64,000 bases of DNA from Candidatus Methylomirabilia bacterium (lineage in GTDB: Bacteria > Methylomirabilota > Methylomirabilia > Rokubacteriales > CSP1-6). A model generated the notes under the pieces. It saw nothing but the letters and a program-made list of their open reading frames with translations. It did not search any database and was not told the DNA's origin. The stretch is taken from positions 7,387 through 71,386 of the forward strand of contig JBGQEL010000010.1 of NCBI GenBank assembly GCA_041496385.1, written 5' to 3'. Position 1 is the stretch's first letter, and every line of letters begins with the position of its first letter. This document shows, one piece after another, positions 53,397 through 60,614 of this stretch. The translations under genes and the position numbers were made by a program.

Positions 53397-53807
53397 TCAG
53401 AAGGTCGCGGCCCGCTCGAAGAACGTGACGTCGACGACGCCGACGTTCTCGGCGCGCGCCGTTTCGGCGACCTTCTGCGTGACCATCTGGCGGACGAACG
53501 GGATCGGAATCCGGCCGAGCCGGTGGATGACCTCGTCGGTGCACCGGATGCGCGTCCCGGGAAGCACCGGGCCGGCCGCGACGACCGCGGCCTCCTCCCG
53601 TTCCGGGTGCTCGCACGTCTCCGGCACGAGCTGCTGCAGGCGCAGCGATACGTACTCGGTCACCCACTGCTGGATGCCGCGCTTCATCTCGTCCGGGCTG
53701 CCCCCGCCGCGCTCCGGCGTATCACCGCCGCCGGTGAGCAGGCTCTCCAGCCGGCCGAGGCGGGTCTCGAGCGCCGCCAGGCGCTGCTCCAATCCCTGAT
53801 CCGTCAT
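53397..53807 (-). CDS. Hypothetical protein with an N-terminal coiled coil and a C-terminal PCP_red-like domain
   Basis: TDEVIHRLGRIPIPFVRQMVTQKVAETARAENV resembles the BchB/ChlB C-terminal domain pattern. Confidence 0.65.
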   Translation of the reverse strand: MTDQGLEQRLAALETRLGRLESLLTGGGDTPERGGGSPDEMKRGIQQWVTEYVSLRLQQLVPETCEHPEREEAAVVAAGPVLPGTRIRCTDEVIHRLGRIPIPFVRQMVTQKVAETARAENVGVVDVTFFERAATF

Positions 53808-53850
53808 CTCATCCTCCGAGCGGCGCGAGCCTTCGCAGCGCGCCGCGGCG

Positions 53851-55266
53851 TCATGCCACCACTGGGCGCCGCGCGTGCCAGTCCGTGAGGCGCTGGTAGG
53901 CGTCGCCGGCGCGCATCACCGTCGCCTCGTCGAACGGCCGCCCGACGAGCTGCAGGCCAATCGGCAGACCGCCGGCCGTGAACCCGCAGGGCACGGAGCA
54001 GCAGGGATGCCCCGAAAAGTTGAACGGGCGCGTCAGCCGGATCAGCGCCGCGCGCACGTCGGACGTCCCGTCGCCGAGCTCCACCGTCCGCTCGCCGAGC
54101 ACGGGCGCCGGGATCGGCGTCGCCGGCGCCAGGAGCACGTCGCGCCGCGCGAGCGCCGCGTCCACCTCCTGGCGCACGAGCTGACGCACCTGCTGGGCGC
54201 GCACGTAGTGGACACCGCTCACGAACGCGCCCATCTTGAGCCGCTCGCGCACGTCCGGCTGGTAGTCCGCGGCGCGCGTCCGCATCCATTCGGCATGGTA
54301 CGCGAGCGCCTCGGCGGCGACGATCGCGAACGCCGCCGCCGCCACGTGCGGGATCTGCTCGAGGCGCACCTCGTCGACCACCGCGCCGGCCTGCGCCAGC
54401 GTGGTGGCGGCCCGCTCGACCGCCGCGCGCACCTCGGGCACGGCCGCGTCGGTGAAGTGCGGCCGCAGGAGCCCGACGCGCAGCCCCTTCACGTCGCCCG
54501 TGAGCGCCGCGGCGTAGTCGGGCACGGGCAGGACGCTCGTGGTCGGGTCCGCGGGATCGTAGCCGGCCATCGCGCGGAGCATGAGCGCGCAGTCCTCGAC
54601 CGTTCGCGCCATCGGCCCCGCGTGGTCCATGGACCAGGACAGCGGCAACACGCCCGCACGGCTCACGCGCCCGTAGGTCGGTTTCACGCCACTGATCCCG
54701 CAGAGCGACGCGGGAATGCGGATCGAGCCGCCCGTGTCCGAGCCCAGCGCGCCGGGGCAGAGCCCCGCGGCGACCGCCACGCCCGAGCCCGAGGACGAGC
54801 CCCCGGCCGCGCGGTGCGCGCCCATGTCCCAGGGGTTCATCGCGTCGCCGTAGTGCGCGTTGAGGCCCTCGGGGCCGTAGGCGAACTCGTGCATGTTGAG
54901 TTTGCCGAGGACGATCAGCCCGGCGGCGCCGAGCCGCGCGACGACGGTCGCGTCCTGGGCCGGCACGAAGTCCGCCAGGATCTTCGAGCCGCCCGTGGTC
55001 CGCACGCCCTTGGTGCTGTAGAGGTCCTTCGGCCCGTAGGGCACGCCATGCAGCGGGCCCGCCACGCGCCCCGCGACCAGCTCCGCCTCGGCGGCGCGCG
55101 CGGCCGCGAGTGCGCCGTCCCCGCAGACGGTGATGAACGAGCGGAGTCGGCCGTCGAGCGCGGTGATGCGCTCGAGGTGGGCCTGGACGACCTCGACCGG
55201 CGAGACTTCCTTCCTCGCGATCATCCGGCCCAGCTCGGCCATCGAGCGCCAGACGAGATCGGCCAT
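53851..55266 (-). CDS. Amidase-signature family enzyme (GatA/AtzE-like)
   Basis: KD, GKLNMHEFA, GGSSSGS and LGSDTGGSIRIPA. Confidence 0.92.
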   Translation of the reverse strand: MADLVWRSMAELGRMIARKEVSPVEVVQAHLERITALDGRLRSFITVCGDGALAAARAAEAELVAGRVAGPLHGVPYGPKDLYSTKGVRTTGGSKILADFVPAQDATVVARLGAAGLIVLGKLNMHEFAYGPEGLNAHYGDAMNPWDMGAHRAAGGSSSGSGVAVAAGLCPGALGSDTGGSIRIPASLCGISGVKPTYGRVSRAGVLPLSWSMDHAGPMARTVEDCALMLRAMAGYDPADPTTSVLPVPDYAAALTGDVKGLRVGLLRPHFTDAAVPEVRAAVERAATTLAQAGAVVDEVRLEQIPHVAAAAFAIVAAEALAYHAEWMRTRAADYQPDVRERLKMGAFVSGVHYVRAQQVRQLVRQEVDAALARRDVLLAPATPIPAPVLGERTVELGDGTSDVRAALIRLTRPFNFSGHPCCSVPCGFTAGGLPIGLQLVGRPFDEATVMRAGDAYQRLTDWHARRPVVA

Positions 55267-55267
55267 G

Positions 55268-55444
55268 TCAGAACACGCGGTACTGGGTCGCGGGCTCGAC
55301 GTCCCCGAGGGGAAGCGTCTCGAGCCGCGCCAGCATGTCGAGCGTCCGTTCCAGCGTCGGGCGGATCGCCTCCAGCTCGGCGTCCGTCCAGGGGAATCCG
55401 CCGAGCCGGGCGATGCCGCGCAGGGTGTCGAGGTTTATTTCCAT
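55268..55444 (-). CDS. Small GatC/AtzG-like amidase partner (58 aa)
   Basis: MEINLDTLRGIARLGGFPWTDAELEAI...LETLPLGDVEP; stop lies 1 nt before the amidase start. Confidence 0.7.
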   Translation of the reverse strand: MEINLDTLRGIARLGGFPWTDAELEAIRPTLERTLDMLARLETLPLGDVEPATQYRVF

Positions 55445-55475
55445 GGGCGGGAGCATACCACTAGAATGAAAGGCG

Positions 55476-57359
55476 ATGGCCGTGGCGCTCACGATTCTGA
55501 CCGATCCGCGCGATCCGGCGGCGCGCCGCGTGCTCGATCCGGATCCCGGAGCATCGATCCTCAAGGCGGCGCACGCCGCCGGCATCGACATCACGGCGAC
55601 CTGCGGCGGCCGCGGCCGGTGCACCTCGTGCCGCGTCAAGTTCGTGAGCGGCACCGTGCCGCCGCCGACGATCATGGACGAGGTCCAGCTCGGCGACGAC
55701 CTCGTGCGCGAGGGCTTCCGCCTCGCCTGTCAGTGCGTGCCGGGTGAGCCCGTGACGGTCCAGGTCGCGCCCCCGCTCGAGGAGCTCTCGTTCCAGATCC
55801 TCGGCGCCGGCCCGGGCCCGCGTCAGCTCGGCCGTATGACGCTCGACTCCGGCATCCAGAAACAGCTCGTCAAGGTCGCCCTGCCCCGCGAGGAGCACCA
55901 TCAGACCTCCGACCTCGAGCAGCTCTGCGCCGCGGTAGGCGCGACGCCGGCCGAGGTCGGCGCCAGCGTCCTGGCGACGCTCCCGGCCGCGCTCCGCGAC
56001 GACCCCGACGGCGTCACCGTGACGACGTTCGCCGTCGGGGGCGGCCATCAACAAGTGTTGGCGGTCGAGCGCGGCGACACCGCCGGCATGAAGTTCGGCC
56101 TCGCGGTGGACATCGGCACGACCAGCGTCGTCACGACGCTGCTGGCACTCGACTCGGGCGAGCAGCTCGCCACGGTCTCGAGCCTGAATCCCCAGGCGGT
56201 GTTCGGCGGCGACCTCATGTCGCGCATCGCGTTCGCGCAGTTCAACCCGGCGAATCTCCGGAAGCTGCACACGCGCATCGTCGGGCTGCTCAACCAGCAC
56301 GTCGAGCAGATCTGCCGCGAGTCGGGCGTCCTGGCGAAGTGGATCTACAAGGTCGTCGTCGTCGGCAACACGTGCATGCATCACATCCTGCTCGGGATCG
56401 ACCCCTCGTACGTGGGCCTGGCACCCTACGCCCCGGTGATGCGCCACCCTCTGGTGCTGCCTGCGCGCGAGCTCTTTCTCAAGGTCGCGCCCGACGCCCG
56501 TGTCTGTCTCCTGCCGATCGTCGCGGGCTTCGTCGGCGCCGACGCGGTCGCGGTCGCGCTCGCCACGCGGATCTACGAGAGCCCCGAGGTCCGCATCGCG
56601 GTGGACATCGGCACGAACGGCGAGGTCCTCCTGGGCTCGCGCGACCGTCTCTGGGCGTGCTCGGCCCCCGCGGGTCCGGCGCTCGAGGGCGGGCAGATCC
56701 GCCACGGCATGCGCGGCGCGCTCGGTGCGATCGACCGCGTTGCCGTGGACGACGACATCCGCGTGCACACGATCGGCGAGGGGGCGGCGCTCGGCATCTG
56801 CGGCTCGGGATTGATCGACCTCCTCGCGGGCCTGCTCGACGCCGGCGCGATCGACCCGACGGGGCTCATCCAGGTGGAGGCCCGCGACACGCTGCCCGCG
56901 ACGCTCCGCGACCGGGTGGAGATGCGCGGCGAGGAGCGCGTGATCGTCGTCCTGCGCCCGGGCGAGGCGGGCGCGCGCGGGGAGATCGTCCTCACCCAGG
57001 ACGACGTCCGCCAGGTCCAGCTCGCGAAGGGCGCGATCGCCGCGGGCGCCGCGATGCTCCAGCACGTGGCCGGAATGCCGAGCGCGCGGGTGGCCGAGCT
57101 CATGCTGGCGGGCGGCTTCGGCAACTACGTCTCGATCGCCAGCGCGCTGCGCATCGGACTGATCCCGCCGCTTCCGCTCGGGCGGATCCGCTACGTGGGC
57201 AACGCGGCCTCCCTCGGGGCCCAGCTCTGCCTGCTCTCCGAGACCGAGCGCGCGCGCGCCGCCGAGATCGCGGGGCGGATCGAGCACGTGTCCCTGGCCG
57301 CCCATCCCGACTTCGAGCGGATCTTCGTGGACTCGATGAACTTCCCGCCGGCGCCATGA
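55476..57359 (+). CDS. RACo/RamA-family ASKHA ATPase with an N-terminal [2Fe-2S] ferredoxin (corrinoid reductive activator-like)
   Basis: CGGRGRCTSC...RLAC, AVDIGTT, FGGDLMSRI, DIGTNGE, AGPALEGG, GICGSG and AGGFG...GNAA. Confidence 0.9.
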   Translation: MAVALTILTDPRDPAARRVLDPDPGASILKAAHAAGIDITATCGGRGRCTSCRVKFVSGTVPPPTIMDEVQLGDDLVREGFRLACQCVPGEPVTVQVAPPLEELSFQILGAGPGPRQLGRMTLDSGIQKQLVKVALPREEHHQTSDLEQLCAAVGATPAEVGASVLATLPAALRDDPDGVTVTTFAVGGGHQQVLAVERGDTAGMKFGLAVDIGTTSVVTTLLALDSGEQLATVSSLNPQAVFGGDLMSRIAFAQFNPANLRKLHTRIVGLLNQHVEQICRESGVLAKWIYKVVVVGNTCMHHILLGIDPSYVGLAPYAPVMRHPLVLPARELFLKVAPDARVCLLPIVAGFVGADAVAVALATRIYESPEVRIAVDIGTNGEVLLGSRDRLWACSAPAGPALEGGQIRHGMRGALGAIDRVAVDDDIRVHTIGEGAALGICGSGLIDLLAGLLDAGAIDPTGLIQVEARDTLPATLRDRVEMRGEERVIVVLRPGEAGARGEIVLTQDDVRQVQLAKGAIAAGAAMLQHVAGMPSARVAELMLAGGFGNYVSIASALRIGLIPPLPLGRIRYVGNAASLGAQLCLLSETERARAAEIAGRIEHVSLAAHPDFERIFVDSMNFPPAP

Positions 57360-58210
57360 AAGGCGCGATCCCCGGCAAGGTCGTCGGCCTCGAGGTCGGC
57401 GCCGTCAGCCAGACGCTGGACGCGCGCTGGCTCATGGCCTACGCGGCGGGGCTGGGCGAGACCGACCCGCGCTACTACGACACGGAGGCGCCCGGCGGGC
57501 CGCTGGCCCACCCGATGTTCGCCGCGTGCTACGAGTGGCCCGTGGCGCTCTCGCTGCGCGCGAAGACGATCAAGCCCGAGCTGCTGCCCCTCGGCGTCCA
57601 GACGAGCCACCACCTCGTCATCCACCGGCAGCCCGCGGCGAGTGATCGCCTGCTCACCCGCGGGCAGGTCGTCACGGTCAAGCCGGTCCGCGCGGGCACC
57701 CTCGTCGTCACGCGCTATTCCAGCGTGGACCGCAACGGCCGGCCCGTCACGACGACCGACTATGGCTCGATCTTCCGCCGCGTGACCACGGAGGGCGAGG
57801 CGAGCGCCGCCGTGCCGCCGCTGCCACGTCCGGAGCCGCCGGCGGGCGACGAGGTGCGCTGGATCGCGACGGTCGCCGTCGGCCTGCAGGCCGCCCACGT
57901 CTACTCCGAGTGCGCGCGCATCTGGAACCCGATCCACACCGACATCGCCGTCGCCCGCGCCGCGGGGCTTCCCGGGCTGATCCTGCACGGCACCGCGACC
58001 ATCGCGCTCGCGGTCTCGCAGGTGATCCAGCGCGACCTGGCCGGCGACCCGACGCGGGTCGCCGAGCTCACCGCGAGGCTCGCGGGCATGGTCTCGATGC
58101 CGTCGAGCCTCGTCGTTCGCGGCCGCGCGCGCGCCGGGAACCGGGTCGCCTTCGACGTCATGAACGAGCGTGGCGAGCCGGTGCTGAGCGACGGCGTCAT
58201 CCGCGCATGA
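57356..58210 (+). CDS. Tandem hot-dog MaoC-family dehydratase
   Basis: N-terminal MaoC-like domain (YAAGLGE...AHPMF) and C-terminal WNPIHTD...GLILHG motif. Confidence 0.82.
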   Translation: MKGAIPGKVVGLEVGAVSQTLDARWLMAYAAGLGETDPRYYDTEAPGGPLAHPMFAACYEWPVALSLRAKTIKPELLPLGVQTSHHLVIHRQPAASDRLLTRGQVVTVKPVRAGTLVVTRYSSVDRNGRPVTTTDYGSIFRRVTTEGEASAAVPPLPRPEPPAGDEVRWIATVAVGLQAAHVYSECARIWNPIHTDIAVARAAGLPGLILHGTATIALAVSQVIQRDLAGDPTRVAELTARLAGMVSMPSSLVVRGRARAGNRVAFDVMNERGEPVLSDGVIRA

Positions 58211-59229
58211 AGCAGATGGGGCGGCGCGAACGGCTCCAGGCCGCGATCAACCGGGAACCCGTGGATCGGACCCCGTATGCGGTCTGGCGCCACTTCCCGG
58301 CCGTGGACCGCTCGCCCGCCGGCCTCGCGCAGGCGACGCTCCGCTTCCATGAGCGCTACGGCTCGGACTTCATCAAGATCACACCGCGCGGCGGCTACGC
58401 GGTCGAGGCGTGGGGCTGCGTCGAGAGCGACGAGCCCAGGCCCGACGGCCACCGGCCCTGCCGCTCCTGCGCCGTGCGCGAAGCCTCGGACTGGAAGAAG
58501 ATCCGGCCGCTGGACCCCACGTCCGCGCCCGGCTGGTCCGAGCAGTTCGAGACGATCGTCCGCATGGGCTTCGACCGGCGCATCGGCGACGCGCCGGTGC
58601 TGCCGACGCTCTTCTCGCCGCTCTCGCTCGCGCGGAAGCTCTCGGGTGACCGCCTCACGCACGACCTGCGCGAGCAGCCCGGCTCGGTCACCGACGCCCT
58701 CGAGGTCATCACCGAGACAGTCGTCCGGTTCGCGGCGCTGGCGCTCGCCGAGGGCGTCTCGGGCATCTTCTACTCGATCCAGGCGGCGAGCCGCTCGGCC
58801 GGCTCCGAGGACGACTACGCGCGCTTCGGCGAGCCCTACGACCGCCGCGTGCTCGAGTCCGTCCGCGACAAGTCCAGCCTGACGATCATCCACTGCCACG
58901 GGGATCGCCTCATGTTCGACCGGCTGGCCTCGCTCCCCGGCCACGCCTGGAACTGGGACGACCGGACGGCCGGCCCGTCCCTGGCCGAGGTCAAAGGCAA
59001 GACGGTCGGCGCGGTCATCGGCGGGCTCGATCAGTGGGGGACGCTGCGGGACGGAACTCCGGACCAGGCTGTGGCCGAGGCGCAGGATGCCCTCGCCCAG
59101 ACCGGGGCTCTCGGGCTCATCGTGGGTCCCGGATGCGTGCTGCCGGCGAACACGCCGGACGCGAACGTCGCGGCGGTCGTGCAGGCTCTCGGCGGTCCAC
59201 TCAGGAAGATCCCCGGCGTCACGCCCTGA
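58207..59229 (+). CDS. UroD/MtaA-superfamily TIM-barrel protein
   Basis: RERL...DRTPYAVWRHF, TLFSPLS, GIFYS, IIHCHG and IVGPGCVLP. Confidence 0.82.
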   Translation: MKQMGRRERLQAAINREPVDRTPYAVWRHFPAVDRSPAGLAQATLRFHERYGSDFIKITPRGGYAVEAWGCVESDEPRPDGHRPCRSCAVREASDWKKIRPLDPTSAPGWSEQFETIVRMGFDRRIGDAPVLPTLFSPLSLARKLSGDRLTHDLREQPGSVTDALEVITETVVRFAALALAEGVSGIFYSIQAASRSAGSEDDYARFGEPYDRRVLESVRDKSSLTIIHCHGDRLMFDRLASLPGHAWNWDDRTAGPSLAEVKGKTVGAVIGGLDQWGTLRDGTPDQAVAEAQDALAQTGALGLIVGPGCVLPANTPDANVAAVVQALGGPLRKIPGVTP

Positions 59230-59244
59230 GTGGCGCTCCGGAAT

Positions 59245-59388
59245 CTAACGCGAGCGGAGACGCGACGCGCGGACGCGCTCGACCCGGCGGCGCCGCTCGA
59301 TGCGCGCTTCGCGCCACTCGAAGGCAGCGACCCCGCAGGCGGTCAAGCCGGCCATCATGCCCCACACCGCGATCATCATCCAGTCCAT
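59245..59388 (-). CDS. Putative small membrane protein (47 aa)
   Basis: MDWMMIAVWGMMAGLTACGVAAFEWREARIERRRRVERVRASRLRSR: one TM helix plus an Arg-rich tail, filling an otherwise empty gap. Confidence 0.5.
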   Translation of the reverse strand: MDWMMIAVWGMMAGLTACGVAAFEWREARIERRRRVERVRASRLRSR

Positions 59389-59534
59389 GCGTATAGGACG
59401 CTGCATCCGAAATGCCAGATGCGAAAGGCCCAGGAATCTTGATGTCCGCTCGGCAGCGTCGTTGAAGCTCGGGCGAAAACGGACCAGCGTCGGGCGCCGC
59501 CCGGCGCATTCCTGTCAGGGCGCGCTCGTCTCGA

Positions 59535-60614
59535 TCACTTCCCGACGTTAAACCGGAAATGGCAGACCTCGCCGTCCTGGACGACGTAGTCCTTGCCCTC
59601 GAGTCGGAGCTGGCCCTTGGCGCGCAGGTCGGCGAACGAGCCTTCTGCTGCGACGAGCTCCGCGTAGCCGTTGACCTCGGCCCGGATGAAGCCGCGCGCG
59701 ATGTCGGAATGCACGGTCCCGGCGGCGTCCTGGGCCCTGGTTCCCGCCGGGATCGGCCAGGCGCGGACCTCATCCTCACCGACCGTGAAGAACGAGACGA
59801 GTCCAAGCAACGCGAAACAGTCACTTAGGACTCGATTGATGGCAGGCTCCTTGAGGCCGAGATCGGCCAGAAAGGCCTCCTGCTCCTCCCCGGAGAGCTG
59901 AGCCACCTCGGTCTCGATGACGGCCGAGACCCATCCCACGCGGGTCTTCGCCTGGGCGGCCACCGGCGCGAGCCCGTACTTGTCGGCGACCCGGGGTCCG
60001 TCGCCAATCGCCTTCTCGTCGAGATTCAGGCAGTGGAGGATCGGCTTCTCGGAGAGGAAGGTGAAGCCGCGGATGGCCTTGGTCTCGTCGGCCGAGAGAT
60101 CCACCGACCGGAGCGGGGTCTCGGCCTCGAGCGCCGCCTTCAGGCGGCGGAGAATCTCCTGCTCCTTGACCTCCGCCTCCTTGCGCTGCTTCTTGATCGA
60201 TACCTCCAGACGCTCGAGCCGCCGTTCGACGACCTCCAGGTCCGCGAGCAGCAGCTCGGTCTCCAGGTCGACGATGTCGCGCCTGGGGTCCGGGGCCCCC
60301 GCGACCTCGTCGGCAAAGGCCCGCACCACGTGCAGGAGCGCGTCGGCGTTCCTGAATTCCTTGGTCTCGAGCCCTCCGCGCTCGCCCTTGGCGATGCCGG
60401 CGAGGTCGACGACCTCGAACGTCGCGAACGTGGTCTTCTTCGGCTTGAAGAGCGCCGAGAGCCGATCCACGCGCGGGTCGGCGACCCTGGCGACGCCCGC
60501 GTGCAGCTCGGCGCGCCCCGTGTCGAAGCGGGCCGTCTGCACGTTCGAGCCCGTGAGCAGGTTGAACAGCGTCGTCTTTCCGGACTTCGGGAGCCCGATC
60601 AGGCCGATCTTCAT
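59535..60614 (-). CDS. ychF: Ribosome-binding ATPase YchF
   Basis: GLPKSGKTTLFN, VDLAGI, FFTVGEDEVRAW, AGTVHSDIARGFIRAE and EGKDYVVQDG. Confidence 0.95.
   Translation of the reverse strand: MKIGLIGLPKSGKTTLFNLLTGSNVQTARFDTGRAELHAGVARVADPRVDRLSALFKPKKTTFATFEVVDLAGIAKGERGGLETKEFRNADALLHVVRAFADEVAGAPDPRRDIVDLETELLLADLEVVERRLERLEVSIKKQRKEAEVKEQEILRRLKAALEAETPLRSVDLSADETKAIRGFTFLSEKPILHCLNLDEKAIGDGPRVADKYGLAPVAAQAKTRVGWVSAVIETEVAQLSGEEQEAFLADLGLKEPAINRVLSDCFALLGLVSFFTVGEDEVRAWPIPAGTRAQDAAGTVHSDIARGFIRAEVNGYAELVAAEGSFADLRAKGQLRLEGKDYVVQDGEVCHFRFNVGK

Follow-up and report, generated by a model that had tools for sequence, protein, structure and literature searches.

We propose that three tightly joined genes of Candidatus Methylomirabilia bacterium (order Rokubacteriales), which encode a RACo-type activase, a MaoC-like hot-dog protein and a UroD/MtaA-like protein, form one transcription unit that is led by a housekeeping corrinoid reactivase. 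The genes lie at positions 55476-59229 of a 64,000-nucleotide stretch of contig JBGQEL010000010.1; this whole stretch, which has a G+C content of 70% and sits on an 83-kb contig (C10) of its own genome, is called the window below. In the proposal, RACo would be the reactivase shared within a dispersed corrinoid hub that resembles the split-MetH/Mtg systems, with the UroD-like protein being an extra module and the MaoC-like protein being a dispensable accessory. As a whole, we hold this to be the best explanation of the trio, with a confidence somewhat better than even. The features concerned are as follows, the three proteins being read from the translations of the open reading frames.

55476..57359, plus strand: RACo, 627 amino acids
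57356..58210, plus strand: MaoC-like double hot-dog protein, 284 amino acids
58207..59229, plus strand: UroD/MtaA-like protein, 340 amino acids
55438..55467, plus strand: promoter-like site TTTCCA-18-TAGAAT, a consensus match only, 8 nucleotides upstream of the RACo start

An earlier note on this DNA had described three plus-strand genes joined by ATGA overlaps, and both the open reading frames and the two overlaps are confirmed on the sequence, where the stop/start overlaps are read directly at 57356-57359 (RACo/MaoC) and at 58207-58210 (MaoC/UroD). The RACo frame has a G+C content at third codon positions of about 0.94, as is usual for the real genes of this genome. In a consensus scan of 55200-59700 the promoter-like match upstream of RACo is the sole one (one found versus 0.1 expected in shuffles), with none inside the trio. 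The 4-nucleotide overlaps and the lack of internal promoter-like sites argue for co-translation of the three genes. The arrangement is far beyond chance, because it recurs in the order RACo-MaoC-UroD in 61 of the 80 species-representative genomes with a UroD orthologue, these genomes being found among 263 pattern-matching stretches in 185,579 species. The 80 matches listed come only from metagenome-assembled genomes of the Rokubacteria/Methylomirabilota type, a few of which bear other NCBI labels, and since only 263 stretches matched, the group of UroD orthologues is, as far as sequence patterns tell, lineage-restricted. No description of the trio was found in the literature on RACo and MaoC, on DUF4445 and uroporphyrinogen decarboxylase, or on Rokubacteria and corrinoid.

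Judged by its architecture, the RACo of the window is a complete RACo/RamA-type ATP-dependent reductive activase of corrinoid proteins. The Pfam domains Fer2, RACo_linker (PF17650), Raco_middle (PF17651) and RACo_C_ter (PF14574) are all matched above the cut-off, with E-values down to 1e-74; the Fer2 match, with an E-value of 3e-12, is N-terminal, and the translation contains the plant-type [2Fe-2S] ligands Cys43-x5-Cys49-x2-Cys52-x32-Cys85. Residues 25-622 align to the Carboxydothermus RACo 3zyy with an E-value of 4.5e-100, the motifs DIGTT, DIGTNGE and GGFG of the ASKHA ATPase being conserved, and the NCBIfam profile AcsV gives 382 bits, under its cut-off of 800. Driven by ATP and supplied with a low-potential electron, such a protein would reduce Co(II) back to Co(I) in MtaC-type corrinoid proteins that are stand-alone and encoded elsewhere. 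Of 61 surveyed genomes from this order, 56 have the RACo orthologue, with 66-88% identity and at the same syntenic site, where the gene order runs pdxS ... amidase ... RACo ... ychF ... queF. The sister family has a solitary RACo at this site.

The window holds no corrinoid-binding gene, as the earlier note had stated, and the B12-binding domain PF02310 has no match on the whole of contig C10 and 14 matches elsewhere in the own genome. The genome search for MttC-, MtaC- or AcsC-like proteins that the note had called for does find three proteins with the MtaC-type architecture (B12-binding_2 plus B12-binding), all of them off contig C10. The main candidate for the client of RACo is the near-universal one on contig C7 (C7:3430-4101, 223 amino acids), which is nearest to Moorella 1y80, MttC and MtgC-type proteins and is present in 60 of the 61 genomes of the order with 78-93% identity. 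Its gene overlaps the start of a gene for a 304-amino-acid homocysteine S-methyltransferase (PF02574, C7:4098-5012), the best match of which is the homocysteine domain of MetH and in which the zinc cysteines NC...CC are kept. The two genes are adjacent in all eight loci inspected, from four families. It is noted that 60 of the 61 genomes have the pair (C7:3430-5012), with 75-93% identity and no accompanying folate module, despite the full-length MetH on contig C18.

A further gene of contig C7 (C7:17016-18869) encodes a 617-amino-acid fusion of DUF169 with an MtaA/CmuA-family domain, which has the canonical His-x-Cys ... Cys and is present in 57 of the 61 genomes of the order. The fusion and the corrinoid/homocysteine pair are often on one contig, a few kb to tens of kb apart, and the fusion is a candidate for the core methyltransferase of the hub. 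Together with RACo, the pair and the fusion would make up a hub that methylates homocysteine without a dedicated folate module. To regard the RACo of the window as the shared reactivase of this hub seems the most economical reading of the gene content, because the corrinoid protein, the homocysteine module, the fusion and RACo share both their distribution and their level of conservation, and because the other possible clients of RACo are absent or self-sufficient.

As to these other clients, CoFeSP is ruled out, since the own genome has no CdhD or AcsCD, its sole PF03599 match being the pterin domain of MetH. MetH is an unlikely client, the full-length protein having its own activation domain. 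The other two MtaC-type corrinoid proteins lie on an accessory island (C51:780-12360) together with a second RACo that is 57% identical to that of the window and is found in only two others among 60 relatives. The genes of the island are, in order, a pterin-binding methyltransferase, a homocysteine-methyltransferase-like gene, a UroD-like gene, a corrinoid protein, the second RACo, a GntR/FCD regulator, a UroD-like gene, a corrinoid protein and a formate-tetrahydrofolate ligase, so that by gene content the island is a complete corrinoid methyl-transfer system of its own. Neither MttB (PF06253) nor DUF1638 (PF07796) is found in the own genome, and no Pterin_bind match is found there beyond the FolP-like gene, MetH and this island; with these missing, the UroD-family proteins would be the available methyl-donor modules.

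It was also suggested in the earlier note that RACo may have a non-corrinoid target. One such target could be a metal site of the UroD-like or of the hot-dog protein, which RACo would reduce. The sole support for this is that no corrinoid gene is present in the window, but corrinoid proteins of the right type are encoded elsewhere, one of them near-universal, and share the order-wide distribution of RACo. Moreover, in the sister family the same RACo orthologue occurs with neither UroD nor MaoC, and the hot-dog protein, with just two cysteines, shows no cluster motif. A non-corrinoid target is therefore not needed to explain the trio, and we consider it very improbable.

We now turn to the UroD-like protein, which as modelled is MtaA-like in fold. 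It matches Pfam URO-D with an E-value of 1e-28, and its AlphaFold model (pLDDT 94.9) is a UroD-type (beta/alpha)8 barrel for which the top Foldseek matches are the MtaA structures 4ay7 and 4ay8 (TM-score 0.82-0.83, E 1e-18), before all HemE structures. In the alignment to 4ay7, His229-x-His231 ... Cys310 fall on the MtaA zinc ligands His-x-Cys ... Cys. These three residues, the zinc-ligand positions that the earlier note had proposed to inspect, hardly vary among 45 orthologues and paralogues, with His231 and Cys310 being lost jointly in one divergent copy. Among the more distant full-length relatives, some have HxH and others HxC at these positions, which supports the triad as a putative metal site equivalent to that of MtaA. 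The possibility, raised in the same note, that the protein is simply the HemE of the organism is ruled out by its score of 16.7 bits with TIGR01464, versus a cut-off of 303, and the real HemE, one of eight UroD-family genes in the own genome, is on contig C60 with a URO-D match of 450 bits. Based on these features, the UroD-like protein would be an extra, lineage-specific and probably zinc-dependent methyltransferase module, passing a methyl group between a small substrate and the same corrinoid protein that RACo serves. If the two proteins share this client, the co-translation of the UroD-like protein with the activase would make sense.

Some observations on the surroundings of UroD-like genes are added here. 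A transporter of the SBP_bac_5/Opp type adjoins the own paralogue of the UroD-like protein, which is 46% identical, at C7:75705 (locus C7:74212-76691). Genes of such transporters recur beside the trio in several genera (L045:2120-5963, L051:10945-15067 and L054:1035-3680), in 5 genomes as its divergently oriented neighbours, and one distant member of the UroD-like family has an Opp-type transporter before it and an acyl-CoA dehydrogenase after it. The recurrence of these transporters hints at an imported substrate.

The distribution of the three genes then tells which of them is constant. In the survey of the order, the MaoC homologue is present in 30 of the 61 genomes, and the UroD orthologue in most of the family of the window and in two genomes of the sister family. 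Among the 80 species-representative genomes, besides the 61 with the complete order, seven further ones have MaoC-UroD at a contig end, eight have RACo-UroD without MaoC, one has RACo and MaoC with queF between MaoC and UroD, two have UroD alone and one has UroD at a contig end. The neighbourhood analysis that the earlier note had proposed thus finds the trio conserved. In loci that lack MaoC, the RACo and UroD genes directly adjoin or overlap each other. The genomes having only RACo-UroD are scattered among the trio genomes on the RACo tree, which requires at least five changes on well-supported branches, and no MaoC homologue is found anywhere in these genomes. The simplest history suggested by the tree is an ancestral trio in the family of the window, followed by repeated loss of MaoC, at least five times.

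The pairwise ratios of nonsynonymous to synonymous substitution rates (dN/dS, by NG86) are 0.20 for RACo, 0.21 for UroD, 0.17 for YchF and 0.375 for MaoC, with MaoC evolving about twice as fast as its neighbours. Taken together, the distribution and the dN/dS values single out RACo as the constant member. UroD, with its tight tie to RACo, was added at the level of the family, and MaoC is a functional but less constrained, dispensable insert.

It is also noted that the locus varies in a few further ways. In six genomes an insert of about 830 nucleotides lies between MaoC and UroD (L120:6170-7000, also in L036, L086, L087, L101 and L102); it encodes RHH/DUF433-like and PIN/DUF5615-like proteins and looks like a toxin-antitoxin pair lodged in the operon. 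In genome G017 an ankyrin-repeat gene takes the place of UroD after RACo-MaoC (L051:7600-8500). In G005 a frameshift breaks UroD in two (L053:9229-10213); the gene may be a pseudogene there, or the assembly may be at fault.

The side of RACo that faces the amidase was considered as well. In the window, the minus strand at 53397-55266 encodes an amidase of 471 amino acids and a protein of 136 amino acids, divergent from RACo across a very short intergenic region; the 136-amino-acid protein has a weak match to PCP_red (protochlorophyllide reductase C-terminal). The adjacency of amidase and RACo persists even for the solitary RACo of the sister family, and could be plain synteny or co-regulation. 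In three genera a DUF748/AsmA-like gene for about 1,460-1,680 amino acids lies between RACo and the amidase (L043:11373-15752, L042 and L046). The inserts at this place were considered as candidate corrinoid genes and are not; they encode either this DUF748/AsmA protein or an Opp-type transporter.

For the MaoC-like protein, Pfam finds FAS1_DH_region (PF13452) and MaoC_dehydratas (PF01575), and the AlphaFold model (pLDDT 94.3) has as its best folds in Foldseek 3kh8, 1pn2 and 1s9c, with TM-scores of 0.77-0.86. The motif of the hydratase-2 enzymes is [YF]-x(1,2)-[LVIG]-[STGC]-G-D-x-N-P-[LIV]-H. The corresponding motif here, Y[ST]EC[AS]RIWNPIHTD, is shared without exception by the 24 sequences of the motif alignment, those linked to RACo and the unlinked ones alike. 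The position of the catalytic Asp is taken by Ile189 and that of the preceding Gly by Arg188 in 24 of 24, both residues being invariant in a 37-sequence alignment too, and His194 and Glu185 are also invariant, so that the protein lacks the catalytic Asp of hydratase 2 and keeps the catalytic His. The MaoC-like protein would be a dispensable accessory that stands outside the corrinoid chemistry, probably being either an acyl-CoA- or thioester-handling enzyme of the same catabolic route as the UroD-like protein or a hitch-hiker. That it substitutes for DUF1638 as a helper of the reactivation is given low weight, MaoC having been lost repeatedly while RACo persists.

The dispensability of MaoC bears directly on what had been expected from the sequence alone, namely a corrinoid-dependent methyl-transfer or tetrapyrrole-related pathway that involves an acyl-CoA step. 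The methyl-transfer part agrees with the MtaA-like fold, but the hot-dog protein cannot be called obligatory, because RACo stands alone in the sister family and RACo-UroD occurs without MaoC in several genera whose genomes have no MaoC at all. A pathway-level link of the trio to an acyl-CoA step is possible. Such a link could take the form of one undescribed pathway with the hot-dog enzyme as an integral member, where an imported methylated compound (methylthio- or methoxy-acyl) is converted to its CoA thioester and is hydrated or dehydrated by the MaoC-like enzyme, the UroD-like enzyme demethylates it onto a corrinoid protein, and RACo keeps the corrinoid protein active.

Two facts are in favour of this pathway. 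The first, which also weighs against our reading, is that in 61 of the 80 species MaoC is retained between RACo and UroD in translational coupling, and its dN/dS is well below 1, as under purifying selection; selection therefore keeps MaoC in the operon, and this is left unexplained when MaoC is taken as an accessory. The second is that in the sister-family genome G039, where RACo, a 77% identical UroD orthologue and a 50% identical MaoC homologue are on three different contigs, the MaoC homologue adjoins a CoA-transferase III and an enoyl-CoA hydratase, which makes an acyl-CoA role plausible. Moreover, the Opp-type transporters that recur beside UroD-like genes, at the paralogue on C7, at the trio in 5 genomes and at the distant relative, keep alive a link between UroD, an imported substrate and acyl-CoA, and give the best reason to think that MaoC is no mere hitch-hiker. 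By contrast, MaoC has been lost at least five times with RACo-UroD remaining intact; MaoC occurs without UroD (G017 and G047) and UroD without MaoC (G045 and at least eight species); the canonical catalytic Asp is missing; MaoC evolves at twice the rate of its neighbours; and the toxin-antitoxin-like insert is tolerated between MaoC and UroD. On balance, we regard a pathway with an integral hot-dog enzyme as unlikely.

Other facts that weigh against our reading concern the other two genes. The whole region is syntenic across the order, which implies that gene order by itself says little about function, and the three genes are apart in G039. The UroD-like protein is far under the cut-offs of the MtaA/CmuA families, with 72 bits for TIGR01463 (cut-off 235) and 75 bits for NF004889 (cut-off 244). 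Its relatives amount to 362 representative clusters at E <= 1e-30, and for seven of them, found in a search of representatives, the contigs were looked up. In all seven, the full-length relatives (35-43% identity) are orphan genes, with neighbours such as peptidases, amidohydrolases, PTE-family hydrolases, SHMT, Opp-type/ECF transporters and acyl-CoA enzymes; no RACo, no MtaC-type corrinoid protein and no MaoC was found near them, and the sole B12-binding gene in these loci, of 156 amino acids, is next to MeaB and about 5 kb off in one locus. Because the relatives are orphans without RACo or MtaC-type neighbours, the UroD-like family may not depend on corrinoid. In addition, we infer the pairing of RACo and UroD with a corrinoid protein from co-occurrence and elimination only.

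The synteny, the separation of the three genes in G039 and the orphan relatives speak for another view, that the trio consists of three functionally unrelated neighbours kept by descent in a highly syntenic lineage, with RACo serving distant corrinoid proteins, the UroD-like protein being a corrinoid-independent metalloenzyme (a MetE-like methyltransferase or a decarboxylase) and MaoC being an ordinary acyl-CoA hydratase. A distant structural relationship of the UroD-like protein to MetE-type zinc barrels speaks for this too. However, the 4-nucleotide overlaps and the lack of internal promoter-like sites argue against mere neighbourhood, as does the fact that RACo and UroD re-join tightly on every loss of MaoC. 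The best fold of the UroD-like protein is MtaA rather than MetE or HemE, and only UroD-family proteins, besides the pterin-binding module of the island, could load the universal corrinoid protein. Descent without a functional tie is thus rather unlikely in our view.

Returning to RACo as the shared reactivase of a dispersed hub, we note what it would mean. Rokubacteria are abundant uncultured soil bacteria, and the data suggest that the whole order keeps, besides its normal MetH, a highly conserved B12 methyl-transfer core that is composed of the corrinoid protein, the homocysteine module, the DUF169-MtaA fusion and RACo. A constant RACo with an optional hot-dog gene shows which parts are to be reconstituted first, and the operon is no proof of an acyl-CoA step in corrinoid chemistry. 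The UroD-like gene is a member of a sizeable uncharacterised branch of MtaA-like proteins with the His-x-His...Cys site, which databases label 'uroporphyrinogen decarboxylase'. As a speculation that we ourselves think improbable, the MaoC-like and UroD-like proteins might constitute a catabolic route of soil Rokubacteria, in which a methylated (thio)ether is handled as its CoA thioester and its methyl group passes via the order-wide hub to homocysteine, with the HxH...C barrel founding a large uncharacterised family of MtaA-like proteins. If this were true, there would exist a folate-independent, B12-dependent methionine synthase drawing on an environmental methyl donor.

Finally, we compare the trio and its presumed partners with known systems. 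The RACo of Carboxydothermus hydrogenoformans (3zyy, 4c1n) has the same four-part architecture of 2Fe-2S, linker, middle and ASKHA domains over the full length, whereas CoFeSP is absent here, so the client is not the protein of the acetyl-CoA pathway, and the AcsV cut-off is missed here. The UroD-like protein has as its best structural match MtaA, the methylcobamide:coenzyme M methyltransferase of Methanosarcina mazei (4ay7), with LHICG being replaced by IHCHG and APGC by GPGC at the metal ligands; the two share only about 22% identity, MtaA has Cys where the second ligand here is His, and the family cut-offs are not reached. To our knowledge, coenzyme M is absent from this organism. The MaoC-like protein shares with the (R)-specific enoyl-CoA hydratases of the hydratase 2/MaoC type (the MFE-2 domain 1s9c, 1pn2 and the Phytophthora protein 3kh8) the double hot-dog fold and the NPxH part with its His, but it has Arg188/Ile189 in place of the Gly/Asp of G-D-x-N-P-x-H, with the invariant Glu185 upstream, and its gene lies between those of a corrinoid activase and a methyltransferase-like protein.

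RamA-like proteins with Fer2 and DUF4445 reactivate the B12 of the split MetH in Phaeobacter inhibens (PGA1_c15200), where the protein is encoded at an unlinked site and is needed for methionine synthesis, and in Desulfovibrio vulgaris the RamA-like DvMF_1398 is needed for B12 reactivation of a MetH without activation domain (PMC5764234). In Ruegeria, an MtgC corrinoid hub is served by dispersed MtgB/D/E and RamA (PMC12478193). The Phaeobacter protein and the RACo of the window are alike in that each is encoded apart from its presumed corrinoid client; unlike the known RACo/RamA-like proteins, the RACo here is co-translated with a UroD-like protein and usually also with a MaoC-like one, in a genome without the DUF1638 partner. 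With the Roseobacter hub of split MetH and MtgB/C/D/E (PMC5764234, PMC12478193) the present system, as predicted from its genes, shares the stand-alone MtaC/MtgC-like corrinoid protein, the MetH-type homocysteine module, the unlinked RamA-like activase and the dispersed methyl-donor modules, and with Sinorhizobium it shares the coexistence of split modules with a full-length MetH. By contrast with the Roseobacter hub, the corrinoid and homocysteine genes overlap in one operon here, there is no universal pterin-binding module, no MttB/MtgB-family protein and no DUF1638, and the candidate donors are UroD/MtaA-family proteins, that is, the DUF169-MtaA fusion and the HxH...C protein of the window. 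The trio, in which an MtaA-like module and an optional hot-dog gene are attached to the activase gene, is not HemE-related housekeeping; it can be explained without a corrinoid-free RACo and without an acyl-CoA step that is obligatory, and it is best filed as a variant of the dispersed split-MetH/Mtg-type systems.

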